DNA from: an uncultured Bdellovibrionales bacterium
Lineage (GTDB): Bacteria > Patescibacteriota > Minisyncoccia > Moranbacterales > UBA2206
Direction of reading: 5' to 3'
DNA length: 45,058 bases
Assembly (NCBI GenBank): GCA_964630615.1
Contig: CAZVVG010000002.1
Span: 2,059-47,116, forward strand
The notes under the pieces: model-generated
Databases searched by the model: none
What the model saw: the letters and a program-made list of their open reading frames with translations, nothing else
Told to the model about the DNA's origin: nothing
Part shown: piece by piece, positions 2,284 through 9,015 of the stretch
How the letters are laid out: every line of letters begins with the position of its first letter
How positions within the stretch are numbered: the first letter of the stretch is position 1
Translations under genes and position numbers: made by a program

Positions 2284-3360
2284 ATGGAAATAACAATTTT
2301 AACAATTTTAGTTTTGGGATTGGGGATTATTATGTTCTTGCTGTTAAGGAAAGAAAAATCCGGCAAAAATGAAGAGATGATTGTTCTTATGGAAAAAATT
2401 TCCAACCTAACTGGTCAGAACGAAAAACTTCGTGAGGTAATCGATAGCAAGCTTAAGGAAACGCACCAGGCCAACCAGAGTCAACTTTTTAACGTTAATC
2501 GGACAATTCAGGAAATTAATAGTCAGTCTGCTAAGTTAATTTCTGAAATAACGGAGAAACTGACCAAACTGGATGACACCAACAAGCAGGTAATTAATTT
2601 TTCCGCCCAACTTCAAAACTTGCAAGACATTCTCAAAAATCCAAAACAGAGAGGCGTTTTAGGCGAGTATTTTTTGGAAGAAACGTTAAAAAATGTGCTG
2701 CCTCCGAATTCCTATAAAATGCAATACGAATTTAAGGATGGGGTCATCGTGGACGCGGTAGTTTTTGTCAAAGAAAAAATTATTCCGATTGATTCCAAGT
2801 TTTCTTTAGAGAACTACGAAAGGATTCTCAATGCCGCGGATGAATCAGAGCGAGAGGCTTTGGAGAAGGCTTTTAAGCAAGACTTAAAAAATCGAATTGA
2901 CGAAACTTCTAAATACATAAAGCCAGAAGAAGGAACTATGGAATTTGCCTTTATGTTTATTCCTTCAGAGGCCATTTATTATGATCTTTTGGTGAATAAA
3001 ATTGGAGCTGTGAAAATTGATACCAAAAGTATGATTGAATACGCGTTTCGAGATAAGCATGTGGTTATTGTTTCGCCAACCTCTTTTTTAGCCTATCTCC
3101 AAACGGTTCTTCAAGGTTTAAGGGCAATGGAAATTGAAGAAAATGCCAAAGAAATTAAATCCAACGTGGCTAATCTCCAAAAGCATATTCTGAACTTTGA
3201 TAATTTTATGCAAAAACTTGGCGCGAGTATGTCAACGACGGTTAATAATTACAATCAGGCCTACAAAGAACTCAATAAGATTGACAAAGACGTGGTGAAA
3301 ATTACTGGCAGTGAAAGAGGAATTGAGCCGGAGCTTTTAGAAAAGCCTAACGTGGAATAA
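2284..3360 (+). CDS. rmuC: DNA recombination protein RmuC
   Basis: N-terminal TM helix, a long coiled-coil, and a C-terminal RmuC-type region (FAFMFIPSEAIYYDL, VVIVSPTSFLAYLQ). Confidence 0.85.
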   Translation: MEITILTILVLGLGIIMFLLLRKEKSGKNEEMIVLMEKISNLTGQNEKLREVIDSKLKETHQANQSQLFNVNRTIQEINSQSAKLISEITEKLTKLDDTNKQVINFSAQLQNLQDILKNPKQRGVLGEYFLEETLKNVLPPNSYKMQYEFKDGVIVDAVVFVKEKIIPIDSKFSLENYERILNAADESEREALEKAFKQDLKNRIDETSKYIKPEEGTMEFAFMFIPSEAIYYDLLVNKIGAVKIDTKSMIEYAFRDKHVVIVSPTSFLAYLQTVLQGLRAMEIEENAKEIKSNVANLQKHILNFDNFMQKLGASMSTTVNNYNQAYKELNKIDKDVVKITGSERGIEPELLEKPNVE

Positions 3361-3377
3361 ATTAAAAATTTCTTTTT

Positions 3378-3391
3378 GGCTGTGGATAACT
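3378..3391 (-). promoter_or_regulatory. Inverted copy of the 14-mer AGTTATCCACAGCC (DnaA-box 9-mer on the minus strand)
   Basis: GGCTGTGGATAACT is the exact reverse complement of 1479-1492. Confidence 0.3.
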
Positions 3392-3409
3392 CTGAATTTT
3401 GGCTTAAAG

Positions 3410-3430
3410 TCTGCCTCTTGGCAGATTTTT
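3410..3430 (+). terminator. Rho-independent terminator after rmuC
   Basis: Stem tctgcc / ggcaga, loop tctt, then ttttt. Confidence 0.7.
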
Positions 3431-3457
3431 AAATTGTGTTAGAATAATAAAAACATA

Positions 3458-3471
3458 TACTATATATAGTA
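3458..3471. promoter_or_regulatory. NrdR-box-like perfect palindrome TACTATATATAGTA
   Basis: The 14-nt perfect palindrome has a core CTATATATAG that matches the core of the published NrdR-box consensus (acaCwAtATaTwgtgt). It lies 43 nt upstream of the nrdR start. Confidence 0.55.
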
Positions 3472-3513
3472 GATATTTCTCATAGCTACACCCTATTACG
3501 TAAAATTATTATT

Positions 3514-3966
3514 ATGAATTGCCCTTTTTGCAATAACTCAGAAACTAAAGTTGTTGACTCCCGGGAAACGAATGAAGGAAAAATTACCCGGCGCCGTCGA
3601 GAATGTTTGAAGTGTGAGGCACGCTTCAGTACCTATGAAGAGGTGGAAATTTTACGTTTGACGGTTATTAAGAAAGACGGATCGCGGGTTGAATATGATA
3701 AAACCAAAATTGAAACCGGAATTCGTAAAGCGCTAGAAAAACGTCCTCTTTCTAAAGAAAAGATAGCTAAGACTCTGGGCGATATTGAATATGAAATTAG
3801 TTCTCTGGAAAAACCGGAAATCACAACCCGGGAAATTGGCAAGATTGTTCTCAAAAAACTCAGGGAGCTGGACGAAGTCGCTTATGTTCGCTTCGCCAGT
3901 GTTTATAAATCCTTTGGTAGCATTGAAAGTTTTAAAAAAGAACTTGACCTTCTGGACAAGGAATAA
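3514..3966 (+). CDS. nrdR: Transcriptional repressor NrdR
   Basis: Zn-ribbon CPFC...CLKC in a textbook NrdR N-terminus (MNCPFCNNSETKVVDSRE), followed by an ATP-cone. Confidence 0.95.
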   Translation: MNCPFCNNSETKVVDSRETNEGKITRRRRECLKCEARFSTYEEVEILRLTVIKKDGSRVEYDKTKIETGIRKALEKRPLSKEKIAKTLGDIEYEISSLEKPEITTREIGKIVLKKLRELDEVAYVRFASVYKSFGSIESFKKELDLLDKE

Positions 3967-4049
3967 ATTTTTTAATTAATTTTTATTAAAGCGGACGAGG
4001 ATGGCGTGTTTGAAGTATTTTCAAAAGCTACTTTCTTGGTCGCGGAAAA

Positions 4050-6254
4050 GTGATGAAAAATAAAAACAAAGAAAAGGGGGAAAAGAAAGGCGATAACAAA
4101 AAAACATCAAGCGGGAAAAGAAGGCTTGAAAACAAGATTAGAAAAATAATCAAGAGAAGCGGAAACATCGTGCCTTTTAACCCGGGAAAAATTACCAAAG
4201 CGGTGGCCAAAGCTTTTCTCGCGACTGGGGAAGGGAGTTTCCAAGACGCCCAAAGAGTAAGCCGAAAAGCCGTTCAGCTTTTAAATAAGAACTACAAAAA
4301 AGGCTATATTCCCGAAATTGAAGAAATTCAGGATTTGGTGGAAAGAGTCCTGATGGTTTTAGATTTTGAAGAAACGGCCAAGGCCTATATTCTCTATCGA
4401 GAACAACATCGAAAAATTCGGGAAACCGAAGAGTCCTTAAGAGAAGCAGTCAGTCTGGTGGATAAATATATTCAAGAAATTGACTGGAAGGTAAAAGAAA
4501 ATGCTAATATGGCTTATTCCTTGCAAGGACTTAATAATTATGTTTCTTCTATTGTCAGCTCTAATTATTGGATGAATCGGGTTTATTCTAAGGAAATTCG
4601 CGAGGCTCACGAGGGAGGAGATTTCCATATTCATGACCTCCAGCTAGTGGCCGCTTATTGTTGCGGATGGGATTTACAGGATCTTTTGCGTCGAGGTTTT
4701 ACTGGAGTTTTTGGAAAAGTAGCTTGCAAGCCAGCGAAGCATCTAGGTTCCGCTTTGGGACAAATGGTTAACTTCATTTATACTCTTCAAGGTGAAGTGG
4801 CGGGAGCGCAAGCTTTTTCTAATGTGGACACTTTACTCGCCCCCTTTGTCCGTTACGATAAACTCAGCTACGAAAAGGTTAAACAGGAAATTCAATCCTT
4901 TGTTTTTAATATGAACGTTGCGACGCGGGTGGGATTTCAAACTCCTTTTTCCAATATTACCCTAGATGTTACTCCGCCTAAAAACTTAGCCGAGGAAGCT
5001 GTTATAGTTGGGGGCGTCCCCCAAAAAGAAACTTACGGAGATTTTCAGGAAGAAATGAATATGCTGAACCGGGCTTTCGCAGAAGTAATGACTTCCGGCG
5101 ACGCGAATGGAAGGATTTTTACTTTCCCAATTCCTACTTATAACATTGGAAAAAATTTTGACTGGAAAGATAAACGTTACGACCCGATTTGGGAAATGAC
5201 GGCTAAATACGGGATTCCTTATTTTGCAAATTTTATCAATTCCGATATGGACCCTGATGATGCGCGTAGCATGTGTTGCCGCTTACGTCTTGATAACCGC
5301 GAGTTGCATAAAAGAGGCGGCGGTCTGTTTGGCGCCAATCCTCTTACGGGTTCTATTGGAGTGGTAACCATTAACCTGCCTCGCTTGGGATATTTAGCAA
5401 AAAACAAAAAAGATTTTTTTAAGCGACTGGAGGGATTGATGAATTTAGCGAAAGAAAGCTTGGAAACAAAAAGAAAATTAATCGAAAATTTGACGGAAAA
5501 GGGCCTTTATCCTTACACCAAGTTTTATCTGGATTCAATTAAGCTCCGCCGTGACTATTATTGGGGCAACCATTTTTCGACGATTGGCTTGGTGGGGATG
5601 AATGAAGCCCTGTTAAATCTTATTGGAGAAAATATAACAACTCGCGCCGGACAAAGACTAGCCAAAGAAATTTTGGAACAGATGCGAGAAAAAATTGTTG
5701 ACTACCAAAAAGAAACGGGCAACCTCTATAATTTGGAAGCGACTCCGGCGGAAGGCACCTCCTATCGTTTAGCCAGAATAGATAAGGAAAAATATCCTAA
5801 AATTGTTTTTGCCAACGATGAGATGGTCAAAGAAAAAGACGCAGAACCTTATTATACCAACTCTTCCCAATTGCCAGTTAACCATACGGAAGACATTTTT
5901 GAAGCGCTGGAACTGCAAGATGAGCTCCAGACTAAATACACGGGAGGAACCGTGTTGCACGGATTTTTGGGGGAAAGAATTATGGACGTGGAAACTACCA
6001 AAAAACTGGTGAAAAAAATAGCCGAAGATTATGCGCTGCCTTATTTCACACTTACTCCGACTTTCAGTATTTGTCCGGTGCATGGATATATTGCTGGCGA
6101 GCACTACACCTGCCCAAAGTGTGTGATAGAACAGAAAACCGAAGTCTACTCGCGCGTTGTGGGTTATATCCGACCGGTAGAACAATGGAACAAGGGAAAG
6201 CAAGCAGAGTTTTCTCAGCGGAAAGAATTCGTTTTAAAAAGTAAAAAAACTTAA
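4050..6254 (+). CDS. nrdD: Anaerobic (class III) ribonucleoside-triphosphate reductase NrdD
   Basis: K-rich N-terminal tail, an ATP-cone, a large NrdD body, a C-terminal CPVH...CPKC metal site and an RVVGY glycyl-radical loop. The GTG at 4050 is immediately followed by ATG at 4053, and either could be the start. Confidence 0.95.
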   Translation: MMKNKNKEKGEKKGDNKKTSSGKRRLENKIRKIIKRSGNIVPFNPGKITKAVAKAFLATGEGSFQDAQRVSRKAVQLLNKNYKKGYIPEIEEIQDLVERVLMVLDFEETAKAYILYREQHRKIRETEESLREAVSLVDKYIQEIDWKVKENANMAYSLQGLNNYVSSIVSSNYWMNRVYSKEIREAHEGGDFHIHDLQLVAAYCCGWDLQDLLRRGFTGVFGKVACKPAKHLGSALGQMVNFIYTLQGEVAGAQAFSNVDTLLAPFVRYDKLSYEKVKQEIQSFVFNMNVATRVGFQTPFSNITLDVTPPKNLAEEAVIVGGVPQKETYGDFQEEMNMLNRAFAEVMTSGDANGRIFTFPIPTYNIGKNFDWKDKRYDPIWEMTAKYGIPYFANFINSDMDPDDARSMCCRLRLDNRELHKRGGGLFGANPLTGSIGVVTINLPRLGYLAKNKKDFFKRLEGLMNLAKESLETKRKLIENLTEKGLYPYTKFYLDSIKLRRDYYWGNHFSTIGLVGMNEALLNLIGENITTRAGQRLAKEILEQMREKIVDYQKETGNLYNLEATPAEGTSYRLARIDKEKYPKIVFANDEMVKEKDAEPYYTNSSQLPVNHTEDIFEALELQDELQTKYTGGTVLHGFLGERIMDVETTKKLVKKIAEDYALPYFTLTPTFSICPVHGYIAGEHYTCPKCVIEQKTEVYSRVVGYIRPVEQWNKGKQAEFSQRKEFVLKSKKT
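6132..6229 (+). repeat. Direct repeat copy 1 (nrdD 3' end encoding the glycyl-radical loop)
   Basis: 98 nt matching 6425-6522 with 4 mismatches by manual alignment. Confidence 0.9.
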
Positions 6255-6289
6255 TCTATAAAAAATTTAAAATAATAAAATAAAAAACT

Positions 6290-6550
6290 ATGGAAAAAAT
6301 AATTTGTCATGACTGTCAAAAAAACTTAACTTCGGGTGAGCCGTACATGCCCTATCAAGAAGGAAAAAATAAATTTTCCAAGTGCCAAGCTTGTTATGAG
6401 CAAGATCCTGTGCTGAGAAACTTTCAGAAAACCGAAGTCTACTCGCGCGTCGTGGGCTATATCCGACCGGTAGAACAATGGAACAAGGGAAAGCAAGCAG
6501 AGTTTTCTCAGAGGAAAGAGTTTATTGTTTCCGAACCGGGTTGTTGTTAG
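6290..6550 (+). CDS. Small stand-alone protein: 4-Cys zinc-ribbon-like N-terminus plus a copy of the NrdD glycyl-radical C-terminus
   Basis: 86-aa ORF with CHDC...CQAC followed by QKTEVYSRVVGYIRPVEQWNKGKQAEFSQRKEF, which is identical in protein sequence to the NrdD tail. It sits between nrdD and nrdG with no terminator in between. Confidence 0.65.
   Translation: MEKIICHDCQKNLTSGEPYMPYQEGKNKFSKCQACYEQDPVLRNFQKTEVYSRVVGYIRPVEQWNKGKQAEFSQRKEFIVSEPGCC
6425..6522 (+). repeat. Direct repeat copy 2 (inside the small ORF)
   Basis: See 6132-6229. Confidence 0.9.
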
Positions 6551-6573
6551 TTTTAAAATGAAAAAAGATAGCG

Positions 6574-6601
6574 GGGCAATCTCGAATGTTCGGGATTGCC
6601 C
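6574..6601 (+). other. 8-bp GC-rich hairpin (gggcaatc / gattgccc) just upstream of nrdG
   Basis: Read directly. There is no T-run after it, so it is not a classical terminator. It overlaps the listed TTG start at 6596 and precedes the ATG at 6614. Confidence 0.35.
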
Positions 6602-7309
6602 TGGTTTAAAGCTATGGTTATCGGCGGTTATCAGAAACTTACTCTTATCGATTATCCAGGTAAATTAGCCTCTACGGTTTTTACCGTGGGTTGCAGTTTC
6701 CGTTGTCCCTTTTGCCACAATCCAGAACTTGTTTTGGATTCCGGGCCCAGCGGAAAAAATATTTTGGAAAAAGACTTCTTTGACTTTTTAAAAAAAAGAC
6801 AAAATAAACTGGAAGGAGTTTGTATTACCGGAGGCGAACCCACCATTCAAAAAGATATTGTTGAGTTTGTAAAAAAAATAAAAAACCTGGGATTCTTGGT
6901 AAAACTTGATACTAACGGCACGCGACCGGACGTCTTGAAAAAACTTTTCGATTTGAAATTGCTGGACTTTGTGGCTATGGATATCAAAAATCAATTGAAA
7001 AAATACGATCAAACTACGGGCGTGATCGGGGATAAAGAAAGAATAAAAATCAGCGTTGAATTAATAAAAAATTCCCAGCTTCCCTATGAATTTAGAACCA
7101 CAGTTGTTCCGGGCCTACATCAGGAGAAAGACTTTGAAGAGATTGCCCGTTGGATTGGAGGAGCGAAAAAATATTATTTGCAGGAATATCGAGAAATAAA
7201 AATCCTCAATCCGAAATTAAGAGAAAAAACCAAAGGGAAAAAAATTGATTTGGAAAAAATTCAAAAGAGAATCAAAAAATATTTCGGGCAAGTAGGCATT
7301 AGGAGATAA
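6596..7309 (+). CDS. nrdG: Anaerobic RNR activating protein NrdG (radical SAM)
   Basis: CSFRCPFCHN is a CxxxCxxC radical-SAM motif, and GGEPT is also present. The listed start is TTG at 6596. The in-frame ATG at 6614 (MVIGGYQKLTLIDYPGK) is more likely the true start. Confidence 0.9.
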   Translation: MPWFKAMVIGGYQKLTLIDYPGKLASTVFTVGCSFRCPFCHNPELVLDSGPSGKNILEKDFFDFLKKRQNKLEGVCITGGEPTIQKDIVEFVKKIKNLGFLVKLDTNGTRPDVLKKLFDLKLLDFVAMDIKNQLKKYDQTTGVIGDKERIKISVELIKNSQLPYEFRTTVVPGLHQEKDFEEIARWIGGAKKYYLQEYREIKILNPKLREKTKGKKIDLEKIQKRIKKYFGQVGIRR

Positions 7310-7314
7310 TTGTT

Positions 7315-7542
7315 ATGAGAATTATAGTTAAAATAATCCCTCGTTCTTCTCGCAATGAAGTTGTAAAAGATTCTGAAGGGGAGTATCGAGTCTGGGTGAC
7401 AAGCGCGCCGACCAAGGGAGAAGCTAATGAGAAATTATTAGAAGTTCTAGCAAAATTTTTTAAAACTCCTAAAAGTTTCCTCAGAATAGTTGGCGGAAAA
7501 TCCTCCCGAATCAAGATGGTAGATCTTTTACTGGTGCCCTAA
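7315..7542 (+). CDS. DUF167 / YggU-family small protein
   Basis: The pattern VKIIPRSSRNEV...GEANEKLLEVLAKFF...RIVGGKSSRIK is typical of UPF0235/DUF167. Confidence 0.75.
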   Translation: MRIIVKIIPRSSRNEVVKDSEGEYRVWVTSAPTKGEANEKLLEVLAKFFKTPKSFLRIVGGKSSRIKMVDLLLVP

Positions 7543-7557
7543 ATAATTTAGACGAAT

Positions 7558-9015
7558 ATGTCTAAATCAAGAATTTTTTTGGCCCTTTCTTTAAGTTTTA
7601 TTCTTGGAATTTTTCTAAGCTCGTTTTCGAATTTAGAAAAAGCAAGGGCTTATTTCTTTTTTTTGCCAGTTTTTTCCATAATTCTGTTGGCTGTCTTTTG
7701 GAAAAATAAAGGAGTTCTCATTGTAGCCTCCTCGATTTTGTTCTTGGCTTGTGGCTTGTTTTTAACGGAAAAAAGACTCTCCGAAATAAGAAACTTAGAC
7801 AAAGAAGGTCAAGAATTTTTTGGCGAAGTTTTAGTTGTTCGGGAGCCTGAAAATAGAGGTCAGTTTCAAAGCTTGATCGTTCAAGCTTCCCCGAAGTTAA
7901 GGTTTTTAATTAGCGCCCCCTCTTTTCCTCGTTTTTTCTACGGGGATAAGCTTGAGATTCGTTGCCAACGAGAAATTCCACGCCGTGAAAACGAAAAATT
8001 TGATTATCGGATGTATTTGGCTAAAGACAGAATTTTTTATGTTTGTCGGAAAAGTGAAGTCAAACTTCTTGAGAGGGAGCAAGGTTTTTACCCCTATTTT
8101 CTTTTGTTAAAAGTGAAAAGCAAGGTAGAGCGAGGCATTAAGAGGCTTTTCCCTTCTCCAGAATCCGGATTGCTTTCTGGATTACTTTTAGGAGGAAGCG
8201 GAAATTTGTCGGAAGGGGTAAAAAATAATTTTTCGCGAACCGGCCTCACTCATATTGTGGCGGTCTCAGGCTACAACGTGACTATTATTGCCGAATATTT
8301 AATGTTATTCGGTTTTTTTATTGGGCTCTGGCGCCAAAAAGCTTTTTGGTTTGCGGTTAGCGGAATTAGCCTTTTTGTTTTGATGATTGGCCTCCCTTCC
8401 TCGGCGGTCAGAGCCGGCATTATGGGTACGTTGCTTCTTTGGGCGGCCAAAAATGGAAGGCTAAGTAATTCGCAAAATGCGATAATTTTTTCCGCCCTAG
8501 TTATGCTTCTTTTCAATCCCTTGCTTCTACGTTGGGATACTGGCTTTCAACTTTCTTTCCTGGCCACTTTAGGAATAATTTATCTTTTTCCCCTTTTGGA
8601 AAAGCGTTTTCAAAAAAGAGAAAAAACTTTGGGTTTGGGAGAAATCCTTCTGCTCACCCTTTCCGCTCAAATTTTTGTATGGCCGGTTATCATCTATAGT
8701 TTCGGCAATTTGTCTCTAATTTCCCCTTTCGCTAACTTGCTTATTTTACCGATAGTTCCGCTCACCATGCTCTTAGGTTTTTTAGCTGTAGCCAGTTTTC
8801 TTATTTTTCCTCCCCTAGGCACTCTTTTGTCTTGGCTGGCTTTTCTTCCGCTTAAATACGAAACGCTCACCGTGGCCTTTCTCTCCCGACTTCCCTTCAG
8901 TAACTTAAGCGTGGAAAGTTTTTCTTGGCTCTGGGTGGTTGCTTGGTATTTAGGTTTAGCCCTAATTTTAATCCAGCTTAAAAAGAAAAAATGCCCAAAA
9001 GAAAAGCAGCTTTAA
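7558..9015 (+). CDS. comEC: ComEC/Rec2 competence channel, N-terminal (DUF4131-like) plus membrane competence domain
   Basis: Polytopic membrane protein with the ComEC core motif FSRTGLTHIVAVSGYNVTI. Confidence 0.85.
   Translation: MSKSRIFLALSLSFILGIFLSSFSNLEKARAYFFFLPVFSIILLAVFWKNKGVLIVASSILFLACGLFLTEKRLSEIRNLDKEGQEFFGEVLVVREPENRGQFQSLIVQASPKLRFLISAPSFPRFFYGDKLEIRCQREIPRRENEKFDYRMYLAKDRIFYVCRKSEVKLLEREQGFYPYFLLLKVKSKVERGIKRLFPSPESGLLSGLLLGGSGNLSEGVKNNFSRTGLTHIVAVSGYNVTIIAEYLMLFGFFIGLWRQKAFWFAVSGISLFVLMIGLPSSAVRAGIMGTLLLWAAKNGRLSNSQNAIIFSALVMLLFNPLLLRWDTGFQLSFLATLGIIYLFPLLEKRFQKREKTLGLGEILLLTLSAQIFVWPVIIYSFGNLSLISPFANLLILPIVPLTMLLGFLAVASFLIFPPLGTLLSWLAFLPLKYETLTVAFLSRLPFSNLSVESFSWLWVVAWYLGLALILIQLKKKKCPKEKQL

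Follow-up and report, generated by a model that had tools for sequence, protein, structure and literature searches.

A candidate replacement glycyl-radical domain for class III ribonucleotide reductase, encoded between nrdD and nrdG in Patescibacteria

Oxygen cuts every glycyl radical enzyme at the radical glycine. The closest described systems to the one reported here are GrcA (YfiD) of E. coli and Y06I of phage T4, which, like the 86-amino-acid (aa) protein of this study, are small free-standing proteins that comprise little more than a large enzyme's glycyl-radical loop. As reviewed previously, YfiD/GrcA rescues pyruvate formate-lyase (PFL) that has been cleaved by O2. Whether spare parts exist beyond PFL was treated as a question still to be settled for other glycyl radical enzymes in a 2021 JBC paper and a 2026 Biochemistry review. 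According to the review, PFL is the only enzyme with a known spare part; an earlier note on this DNA knew of no established equivalent for class III ribonucleotide reductase (RNR).

The window, the whole 45,058-nucleotide stretch of DNA that was analyzed, contains an nrdR-nrdD-nrdG locus with a small open reading frame (ORF) between nrdD and nrdG (Table 1). The NrdD comprises an ATP-cone and an NRDD domain, exhibits the finger-loop cysteine motif RSMCCRLRLD, and keeps its own glycine loop (Gly705, codon 6162-6164). The small ORF was found close downstream of the nrdD stop as the earlier note had described, at a distance of 35 nt and not the 36 nt claimed. A gene with exactly this sequence had also been called on two independent metagenome contigs (Logan and JGI, one each). 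The nrdG gene begins 63 nt 3' of the small ORF at the ATG chosen by the gene callers (position 6614; L172/L173), or at 6596 if a TTG is used, and its product scored 216.6 bits against TIGR02495 (cut-off of 131).

Table 1. Features of the nrdR-nrdD-small ORF-nrdG locus (positions in the window)
Feature	Position	Strand	Basis or remark
Sigma-70-like promoter candidate, TTGGCA-16-TAGAAT with TG	3418..3445	+	Upstream of nrdR; consensus match
Palindrome ATACTATATATAGTAG	3457..3472	+	Just 3' of the -10 hexamer; read from the sequence
nrdR, 150 aa, Zn-ribbon and ATP-cone repressor of RNR genes	3514..3966	+	Pfam Zn_ribbon_NrdR 2.5e-19, ATP-cone 1.7e-21
nrdD, 734 aa, full-length class III RNR	4050..6254	+	Pfam NRDD 1.9e-199; NCBIfam PRK08270 1085 bits
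Repeat copy 1, NrdD codons 695-727 (QKTEVYSRVVGYIRPVEQWNKGKQAEFSQRKEF)	6132..6229	+	Repeat search, reference copy
Small ORF, 86 aa, predicted Zn-ribbon, NrdD-type glycyl-radical loop and Cys-Cys tail	6290..6550	+	Pfam NRDD C-terminus
Four-Cys module (C6, C9 ... C32, C35) of the small ORF, predicted zinc ribbon	6305..6394	+	Invariant Cys and AF2
Repeat copy 2, small-ORF codons 46-78, with putative radical Gly56 (codon 6455-6457)	6425..6522	+	
GC-rich hairpin between small ORF and nrdG, AAAGATAG just 5'	6571..6603	+	Fold and covariation
nrdG, 231 aa from ATG, radical-SAM activase of class III RNR	6614..7309	+	NCBIfam TIGR02495 NrdG2 1.9e-64

The promoter candidate upstream of nrdR was the top consensus match within positions 3300-7700 (10 of 12 positions) and is probably the start of an nrdR-nrdD-small ORF-nrdG transcript; the palindrome beside it resembles what we take to be the NrdR box consensus. 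The same scan of 3300-7700 returned no promoter-like sites between nrdD, the small ORF, and nrdG, and there were no internal promoter or terminator matches in this three-gene segment. Given also the conserved gene order described below, the small ORF would be co-transcribed with nrdD and nrdG. The segment at 6548-6616, which includes the hairpin, had a predicted folding energy of -29.1 kcal/mol (z of -6.6). The hairpin was present in many related loci, and an alignment of 18 copies exhibited compensatory changes in 7 of the 13 pairs. A search of Rfam with the hairpin produced no match, and the element is possibly an internal attenuator or an RNA-stability element.

The earlier note had proposed a profile search of the 86-aa protein, and this placed it on the C-terminus of the Pfam NRDD model (PF13597; positions 510-562 of 562) with 47 bits and an E value of 2e-12, above the curated cut-off of 26.2. 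The Gly_radical (PF01228) and GrcA models gave no match in hmmscan against Pfam and NCBIfam at E values up to 1. Scores against the NCBIfam NrdD equivalogs were 15 to 38 bits, compared with cut-offs of 326 to 585, and the protein has neither the catalytic barrel nor the finger-loop cysteine; it is a domain of NrdD and not an RNR. No dedicated family for it was found in PHROGs, Pfam, or NCBIfam.

The earlier note had also claimed that the small ORF rebuilds the C-terminal architecture of NrdD. This held for the RVVGY loop, but only in part for the metal site, which in the window's NrdD is CPVH...CPKC (three Cys and one His), whereas residues 1 to 45 of the small protein hold the four-Cys pattern CHDC...CQAC. 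Consistent with the note, no DNA repeat was detected between the N-terminal half of the small ORF and nrdD. Profile-profile alignment of the small-protein family with NrdD C-termini (hhalign) covered the loop half alone (41 columns, 80% identity) and gave no evidence that the two ribbons share an ancestor; the order of a Cys site followed by RVxGY is therefore shared in pattern only. In the AF2 model the ribbon part was predicted with a pLDDT of about 80 (strands 4-6, 19-24, and 27-32, helix 33-38), and Gly56 was located at the tip of a hairpin formed by strands 49-52 and 57-60. Confidence in the model was moderate, with a mean pLDDT of 71.8 and values below 60 in the C-terminal third. Foldseek against the PDB returned nothing at E values of 0.001 or below, only generic zinc ribbons of ribosomal proteins, a result that is uninformative since an isolated 86-aa model was set against 600-aa chains. 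A profile search of PDB sequences produced only weak loop matches, to the NrdDs of T. maritima and P. copri (4COI and 8P23; E values of 0.17 to 0.74). The small protein ends in a Cys-Cys tail that the window's NrdD does not have.

The loop is encoded twice in the window. The 98-nt direct repeat reported in the earlier note was confirmed, with 94 of 98 positions (96%) identical and the four mismatches as counted there. A match of this quality within 4.5 kb is far beyond chance; the next-longest repeat within 3500-8000 was 37 nt at 78%. Both copies begin precisely at a codon boundary. The mismatches are GTT/GTC (Val), GGT/GGC (the radical Gly), CGG/AGG (Arg), and GAA/GAG (Glu), and because all four are synonymous, the 33 residues of QKTEVYSRVVGYIRPVEQWNKGKQAEFSQRKEF are the same in NrdD and the small protein, just as the note had stated. 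Its suggestion of gene conversion was supported by the codons used for shared residues, which were identical more often within genomes (0.66) than between genomes (0.46). The within-genome values were bimodal, reaching 0.85 in the window and 1.00 (99/99 nt) in a related locus, L003. These data support the view that the loop-coding segments of nrdD and the small ORF recently underwent gene conversion, the likely origin of the near-identity in the window. Such conversion would keep the NrdD loop and the small-protein loop matched to one socket and one activase. In most genomes the synonymous similarity of the paralogous segments was at background level, which indicates that the small gene is old and that only the homogenization in the window is recent.

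Homologs of the small protein formed 395 clusters at 90% identity, and the best 120 were all 82 to 113 aa in length. An exhaustive HMMER search found small free-standing proteins in at least 150 clusters at 50% identity, and the best 150 representatives were all 42 to 159 aa. The small protein belongs to a large family in Patescibacteria. Full-length identity between the small ORF and its relatives was 60 to 70%, the N-terminal half included. Among 92 sequences, C6, C9, C32, C35, and the loop S-R-x-V-G-Y-I-R-P were invariant and V54 was nearly so, and the dN/dS ratio was 0.32 for the N-terminal half and 0.12 for the loop. The survey of relatives suggested in the earlier note thus recovered small ORFs with intact Cys residues, an intact glycine loop, and dN/dS below 1, rather than the absent, frameshifted, or degenerate copies that it had named as the contrary outcome. 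On this pattern of conservation we conclude that the 86-aa ORF is a real gene under selection and not a decaying duplicate.

The order nrdR-nrdD-small ORF-nrdG was conserved in relatives, including the cultivated Minisyncoccus archaeiphilus (L057), as was the adjacency of nrdG to the small gene, and nrdR lay upstream of nrdD in most related loci that include the upstream region. At one relative (L068), a class I RNR adjoins the small gene. Some relatives, among them L081 and L083, have a full NrdD and no small ORF, and L081 is the nearest relative of the window's NrdD. Since close relatives live without the small gene, its benefit appears to be conditional.

At 24 related loci, representing 22 distinct NrdD cores, NrdD stops 5 to 35 residues past the CPxC ribbon and lacks RVVGY; examples of the C-termini are CPKCMAEQSEGKYLKVKKSEIKK, directly followed by the stop, and CPKCVIEQKTEVFLKVGEEEL, followed by further residues and the stop. 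These proteins end at approximately the radical-glycine position, at which O2 scission of E. coli NrdD is known to occur. The 24 loci encoded no second loop in any forward frame (the strand of nrdD and the small ORF), and the small protein is the sole predicted radical loop there. An assembly or frameshift artifact was ruled out for the loop-less NrdDs by the number of loci, their independent assemblies, their proper stops, and the absence of a loop in the other forward frames. All catalytic motifs tested were retained, RSMCCRLRLD for example in 22 of 22 cores. Roughly one third of the relatives sampled have no radical loop other than that of the small protein, for which "spare" is therefore too narrow a term. 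In a tree of NrdD cores, full NrdDs with the small protein, loop-less NrdDs with the small protein, and full NrdDs alone were interspersed, supporting the view that the NrdD loop and the small protein are, on this distribution, reciprocally dispensable. A search that returned only proteins shorter than 75 aa, and thus could not reach NrdDs, also revealed loop-only ORFs of 47 to 55 aa, in WS6 and other Patescibacteria and in a DPANN archaeon, each flanked by a loop-less nrdD and by nrdG. An RNR divided over two genes is accordingly seen for the 22 related cores and at L085-L088, and not in the window, where NrdD is complete.

The small gene has moved elsewhere in 17 loci. A Fur-family regulator was directly upstream in 13 of these, and a superoxide dismutase (SOD), desulfoferrodoxin, rubrerythrin, or hemerythrin gene was directly downstream in 12, while none of the 71 other cellular loci had such neighbors. 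This placement supports a putative link between the small gene and oxygen. The loop signature of the stress-cluster copies, WHKGKK, was absent among the 120 Paceibacterota NrdDs listed for a Minisyncoccus NrdD query and was carried by P0122, a 67-aa NrdD C-terminal fragment. Viruses also encode the loop. Most of the best 80 IMG/VR matches were small loop ORFs with NrdD and NrdG absent within 4 kb, and the viral copies lie between bona fide structural genes, either terminase and portal or head morphogenesis and tape measure. The archaeal virus ANMV-1 encodes a 144-aa homolog (49% identity), and its 38.5-kb record contained neither an NrdD core nor NrdG. Minisyncoccus archaeiphilus, which has the small gene, is a parasite of a strict anaerobe, and hence oxygen damage may not be the sole selective reason for keeping the gene.

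We hypothesize, with moderate confidence drawn from the sequence comparisons, that the small protein is an NrdG-activated replacement glycyl-radical domain for NrdD, in which a four-Cys ribbon presents the RVVGY loop. NrdG would act on Gly56 by abstracting a hydrogen, as it does on NrdD's Gly705. The loop of the small protein would then enter the NrdD barrel by the finger-loop cysteine and take the place of NrdD's C-terminal loop. Since the window's NrdD keeps its loop, the small protein would most likely serve as a replacement when that loop has been cut by O2 at the radical glycine or has not been activated, and the cell would re-arm an 84-kDa NrdD with a 10-kDa polypeptide. Against this reading, the ribbon of the small protein shows no detectable homology to that of NrdD, and since a cleaved or truncated NrdD retains its own ribbon, two ribbons would have to fit at one active site.

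Alternatively, the class III RNR of the whole lineage might be a two-piece enzyme in which the small protein normally bears the radical. Even with a loop on NrdD, as in the window, catalysis would then depend mainly on the small protein, and the NrdD loop would be a redundant relic that gene conversion keeps similar. This would account for the frequency of loop-less NrdDs beside the small ORF and their scatter over the tree, and for the split versions with a loop peptide of about 50 aa in WS6 and DPANN; the class II NrdJa/NrdJb pair provides a precedent for a split RNR. Moreover, the Cys-rich tail and the downstream hairpin belong to the small ORF and not to NrdD, and are found on NrdD where the small ORF is missing (L081). 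However, 34 distinct genomes have an intact NrdD loop with a protein identity of 0.81 between genomes, which is unexpected for a relic, and L081 and L083 manage with NrdD alone. The stress-cluster and viral copies are also better suited to an accessory or rescue role, and we regard an obligate subunit as unlikely.

Still less probable is that the small protein regulates NrdD as a decoy, competing for NrdG or for the NrdD socket so as to tune or store radical equivalents, or serving viruses to hijack the host activase, with no catalysis restored. A ribbon and loop without a catalytic barrel would be enough to bind NrdG, viral copies without NrdD could be inhibitors, and the conserved hairpin 5' of nrdG suggests controlled stoichiometry. 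A decoy would nevertheless leave the loop-less genomes without a radical route, although both NrdD and NrdG remain intact and conserved there, and it would not need loop residues as strictly conserved as those of NrdD itself.

At first sight the near-identical direct repeat resembles a young duplication, and the ORF might be a piece of the nrdD 3' end that was recently duplicated in tandem, has stayed open by chance, and is decaying. This is hardly credible, however, and was ruled out by the 395 clusters, an N-terminal half orthologous in hundreds of relatives, the invariant key residues, the dN/dS ratios, and the codon comparison, in which most genomes are at background.

Returning to the replacement domain and extending it beyond the window, it is probable, judging from sequence and gene context, that Patescibacteria, DPANN archaea, and their viruses share an unrecognized family of free-standing glycyl-radical cartridges that would be activated by NrdG and plug into NrdD in trans. 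Depending on the genome, the cartridge may be a spare for oxygen-cut NrdD, the sole loop of a two-piece enzyme, a repair part that a Fur/PerR-like regulator induces under stress, or a viral auxiliary gene that sustains the host NrdD. At least three architectures were found: ribbon plus loop, loop only, and leader plus loop. If correct, spare-part systems would for the first time extend beyond PFL to another glycyl radical enzyme, and class III would gain its first split RNR. For the enzyme by which anaerobes make their DNA precursors, the locus and its relatives provide a concrete and abundant spare-part candidate. The NrdDs that are intact except for the missing loop, and that have no loop beside them but that of the small protein, represent a natural version of the key experiment. 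With only three proteins and a cultivated carrier, M. archaeiphilus, the system is directly testable. It may also explain how cells with tiny genomes, in which class III may be the only RNR, survive pulses of oxygen, as 10 kDa would be replaced rather than 84 kDa. The viral copies are likely a new class of auxiliary gene, and hundreds of small proteins labeled "anaerobic ribonucleoside-triphosphate reductase" are misannotated.

The analogy with GrcA that the earlier note had drawn is backed by the loop-less NrdD relatives, the clusters with Fur, SOD, desulfoferrodoxin, and rubrerythrin genes, the viral small gene that stands alone as Y06I does in T4, and the 2026 review. As with GrcA and Y06I, there are cellular and virus-encoded versions, and by analogy the protein is expected to be activated by its partner's radical-SAM activase and to replace a loop severed by O2. 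The genome of the window holds, as in the GrcA case, a small copy of the loop of a full-size enzyme (86 aa, of which 33 residues equal NrdD 695-727). The partner, however, is NrdD and not PFL, and the small protein is not a sequence member of the GrcA/YfiD family (IPR011140), matching only Pfam NRDD. The N-terminus of YfiD is disordered, whereas that of the small protein is a conserved four-Cys ribbon, and, unlike grcA, the small gene lies within the nrdD-nrdG operon and appears to undergo gene conversion with nrdD. For PFL and GrcA we know of no counterpart to the sole-loop situation seen in many relatives. The C-terminal domain of NrdD itself, known from the phage T4 and Thermotoga maritima structures, likewise has a Cys-rich metal site followed by RVVGY, with the 33 residues identical in the window. 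The small protein differs from it in being a separate polypeptide with its own start codon and no barrel, and the ribbons, CPVH-11-CPKC in NrdD and CHDC-22-CQAC in the small protein, do not align. In class II NrdJa/NrdJb of Pseudomonas aeruginosa, an RNR catalytic polypeptide is encoded by two adjacent genes, as it is by a loop-less nrdD and the small ORF and at the WS6 and DPANN loci. The class I NrdA of phage Aeh1 is reportedly split by a homing endonuclease. Both of these splits occur in classes that tolerate oxygen, and neither detaches the element that bears the radical, whereas in the window NrdD is unsplit and the radical element is instead duplicated.

The direct repeat described in the earlier note was recovered as the single outstanding one in a repeat search of the window (94/98 nt identical), with both copies starting on a codon boundary. 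All four differences (GTT/GTC, GGT/GGC, CGG/AGG and GAA/GAG) are synonymous, so residues 695 to 727 of NrdD and 46 to 78 of the small ORF are, as had been claimed, the same 33 residues, RVVGY among them. Residues 1 to 45 of the small ORF (CHDC...CQAC) likewise shared no DNA repeat with nrdD. Profile-profile comparison gave no alignment of residues 1 to 45 with the NrdD C-terminus. What the note described is borne out, with two minor amendments: the gap after nrdD measures 35 nt rather than 36 nt, and the metal site of the window NrdD is Cys3-His.

Coordinates of features in the window and in compared loci (L numbers: relatives and viral contigs)
Feature	Location	Position	Strand	Remark
Promoter-like site and palindrome	window	3418-3472		
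nrdR	window	3514-3966	+	
nrdD	window	4050-6254	+	734 aa
Repeat, first copy	window	6132-6229		98 nt
Small ORF	window	6290-6550	+	86 aa
Repeat, second copy	window	6425-6522		98 nt
Cys85-Cys86 codons	window	6542-6547		C-terminal tail
GC-rich hairpin	window	6571-6603		between small ORF and nrdG
nrdG	window	6614-7309	+	
Split nrdD	L007	1761-3957		two or three overlapping ORFs
Split nrdD	L052	1503-3813		two or three overlapping ORFs
Single nrdD	L081	1931-4123		
Two-piece locus	L085	2947-5144		nrdD, 47-55-aa ORF, nrdG
Two-piece loci	L086/L087			nrdD, 47-55-aa ORF, nrdG
Two-piece locus	L088	2795-5159		nrdD, 47-55-aa ORF, nrdG
ANMV-1 gene	KP703175.1	25525-25959		144 aa
ANMV-1 gene	L170	2677-3111		144 aa

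The small protein scored higher than the curated cut-off of Pfam NRDD in a match to the final 53 model positions, and the Pfam and NCBIfam search gave hits to NRDD/NrdD models alone; the protein is an NrdD domain and no RNR itself. A protein search returned 395 related clusters. The best 120 were all 82 to 113 aa, shared 59 to 71% identity with the query over 87% or more of its length, and belong to Moranbacteria, Parcubacteria and other Patescibacteria. When 1.84 billion representatives were searched exhaustively with HMMER, 3947 hits resulted; as the best 150 were all 42 to 159 aa, the family is large and diverse. The four Cys and the loop residues S-R-x-V-G-Y-I-R-P and Q-W-N-x-G-K were invariant in 92 aligned members, and pairwise dN/dS, computed with synonymous sites near saturation, was 0.32 (N-terminal half) and 0.12 (loop half), both below 1 as predicted. 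The order nrdR-nrdD-small-nrdG recurred in independent assemblies and in the complete genome of the cultivated Minisyncoccus archaeiphilus (L057). By these comparisons the small ORF is a conserved gene, and its reading as debris is rejected.

An AF2 model built with the 92 sequences (mean pLDDT 71.8) placed the four Cys in a ribbon of three strands and a short helix, followed by a beta-hairpin (49-52/57-60) with Gly56 at its tip, which we take with moderate confidence to be the shape expected of a glycyl-radical loop. Foldseek found no significant match to the model in the PDB. At the C-terminus, most small proteins, loop-only ones included, carry a Cys-rich tail (CC, CxC, CxxC or CGC), unlike the Lys-rich tails of adjacent full-length NrdDs. 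The Cys tail resembles the redox-shuttle tails found in class I and II RNRs; alternatively, it may form an additional metal site.

Gene conversion or constraint had been suggested to explain the near-identity of the loops. Among codons for identical residues within the 33 loop codons, the fraction identical was 0.66 between nrdD and small ORF of the same genome versus 0.46 for any between-genome comparison. Within-genome values were bimodal, with a high group (window, 0.85; L003, 1.00, 99/99 nt; L009, L015, L036 and L066, 0.93 to 0.96) and the remaining genomes at background. That most pairs lie at background indicates that the small gene is old and rules out recent duplication as the source. 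By this measure the near-identity in the window is a recent conversion tract, constraint alone being insufficient.

The hairpin (GGGGCAAT...ATTGCCC), which has AAAGATAG before it and a U-rich run after it, folds at -29 kcal/mol (z -6.6); compensatory changes affect 7 of its 13 pairs across 18 copies. It was also present in L001, L003, L006, L009, L018, L020, L027, L028, L030, L031, L036, L037, L046, L051, L054, L055 and other loci. Rfam gave no match for it, and a window scan detected no promoter-like or terminator-like consensus between nrdD, small ORF and nrdG. The hairpin may be an internal attenuator setting the ratio of nrdD plus small ORF to nrdG. The best promoter candidate (TTGGCA-16-TAGAAT) lies upstream of nrdR, and the palindrome ATACTATATATAGTAG after it resembles, in our reading, an NrdR box; this suggests possible NrdR autoregulation of the whole operon. 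In the close relatives L081 and L083, which have no small ORF, the AAAGATAG hairpin sits directly after nrdD, and the L081 NrdD has a small-ORF-like tail (...DRKEFAVAEEANC). This would fit a deletion between two direct repeats or, alternatively, a small ORF that holds the ancestral nrdD 3' end.

Eighty loci from species-representative genomes were compared with the window's proteins. In type A (34 distinct NrdD cores, window included), a full NrdD with its own loop accompanies the small ORF. In type B (24 loci, 22 distinct cores) the small ORF occurs with an NrdD without RVVGY. In type C (17 loci) NrdD is absent within 4 kb of the small ORF, and type D (3 loci) has NrdD only. Type B NrdDs end 5 to 35 residues past the CPxC ribbon in a short, mostly Lys-rich tail, some keeping a stub of the first loop strand (...CPKCVIEQKTEVFLKVGEEEL*), and the sole loop in the forward reading frames of the locus is that of the small ORF. 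All catalytic motifs tested were kept (RSMCCRLRLD in 22/22 cores). Oxygen cuts E. coli NrdD at the radical glycine, and type B NrdDs, ending at about that position, resemble NrdD that is pre-cleaved by nature. A neighbour-joining tree of NrdD cores showed types A, B and D interspersed, with L031 (type B) inside an A clade and L081 (type D) as sister of the window, indicating many losses or regains of the NrdD loop and at least two losses of the small ORF. Such a pattern would be expected if loop and small ORF supply the same function. The split nrdD genes of L007 and L052 (complete genome CP064994, with nrdG about 2 kb further away) reflect either frameshift error or pseudogenes. NrdDs of about 1025 to 1035 aa among Paceibacterota relatives (database proteins P0203, P0229 and P0250-P0259), some matching intein model PF14890, and ORFs of similar length on viral contigs L116-L118 and L158 are probably intein-containing nrdD genes.

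Searching with the loop alone yielded complete proteins of 43 to 70 aa consisting of a short leader and the loop. In WS6 (Dojkabacteria), an archaeal MAG and another Patescibacteria genome, such ORFs separate a loop-less nrdD from nrdG. In L085-L088, nrdD ends just past the CPxC ribbon and the ribbon-less ORF carries the sole RVVGY loop; these loci are predicted to be simple two-piece class III RNRs. IMG/VR held 269 matching stretches, and of the best 80 (L089-L168) the majority were small loop ORFs, with or without ribbon, and had neither NrdD nor NrdG within 4 kb. Neighbours included terminase, portal, head-morphogenesis and tape-measure genes, and one subtype (L114, L123, L137, L151, L163) had the N-terminal leader NGDLxLDNGxxIPAxKR.

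A Fur-family regulator gene directly precedes and partly overlaps the small ORF in 13 of the 17 type C loci, and a same-strand gene for Fe/Mn superoxide dismutase, desulfoferrodoxin, rubrerythrin or hemerythrin follows it in 12; such genes were absent from the 71 other cellular and 80 viral loci. This setting links the type C copies to oxygen stress. Relocated copies lie at about 3600-5500 of L062, L064, L067-L070, L072-L074, L076-L080 and L082. The L064 cluster also holds a bacterial eRF1-like (baeRF) gene and an HD-domain gene, and class I RNR genes adjoin the small ORF of L068, divergently upstream. An NrdD C-terminal fragment with the loop signature of type C copies exists in the database.

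From genomic context and the PFL/YfiD precedent, we lean towards a mechanism in which NrdG would activate Gly56 and the loop would dock into the NrdD barrel where NrdD's own C-terminus otherwise sits; in the window genome the small protein would stand in for a loop cut by oxygen, or for that of unactivated NrdD. Against replacement, close relatives can dispense with the gene, it occurs in M. archaeiphilus, which we take to be a parasite of a strict anaerobe, and two ribbons must fit one active site. That the small protein is a normal, obligate radical subunit even in the window genome is a less likely explanation, and a decoy or regulator of NrdG is improbable. A decaying duplicate is scarcely credible given the invariant residues.

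Type B and loop-only loci would be split RNRs, previously known for class II; our literature search found no description of a split class III RNR or of an NrdD-type free-standing radical protein. The earlier note knew of no established equivalent for class III RNR. According to a June 2026 review, spare parts have been identified for formate-lyases alone among glycyl radical enzymes, the existence of others being yet to be determined. The replacement proposed here would work like GrcA/YfiD, yet by the Pfam and NCBIfam models the small protein falls outside that family. In the archaeal virus ANMV-1 (GenBank), a gene named nrdD in the record and paper codes for a 144-aa ribbon-plus-loop protein, 49% identical to the window's, and the 38.5-kb record contains neither NrdD core nor NrdG. 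Carrying the loop only, such a virus must depend on host NrdD and NrdG, which mirrors the pairing of T4 Y06I with host PFL.
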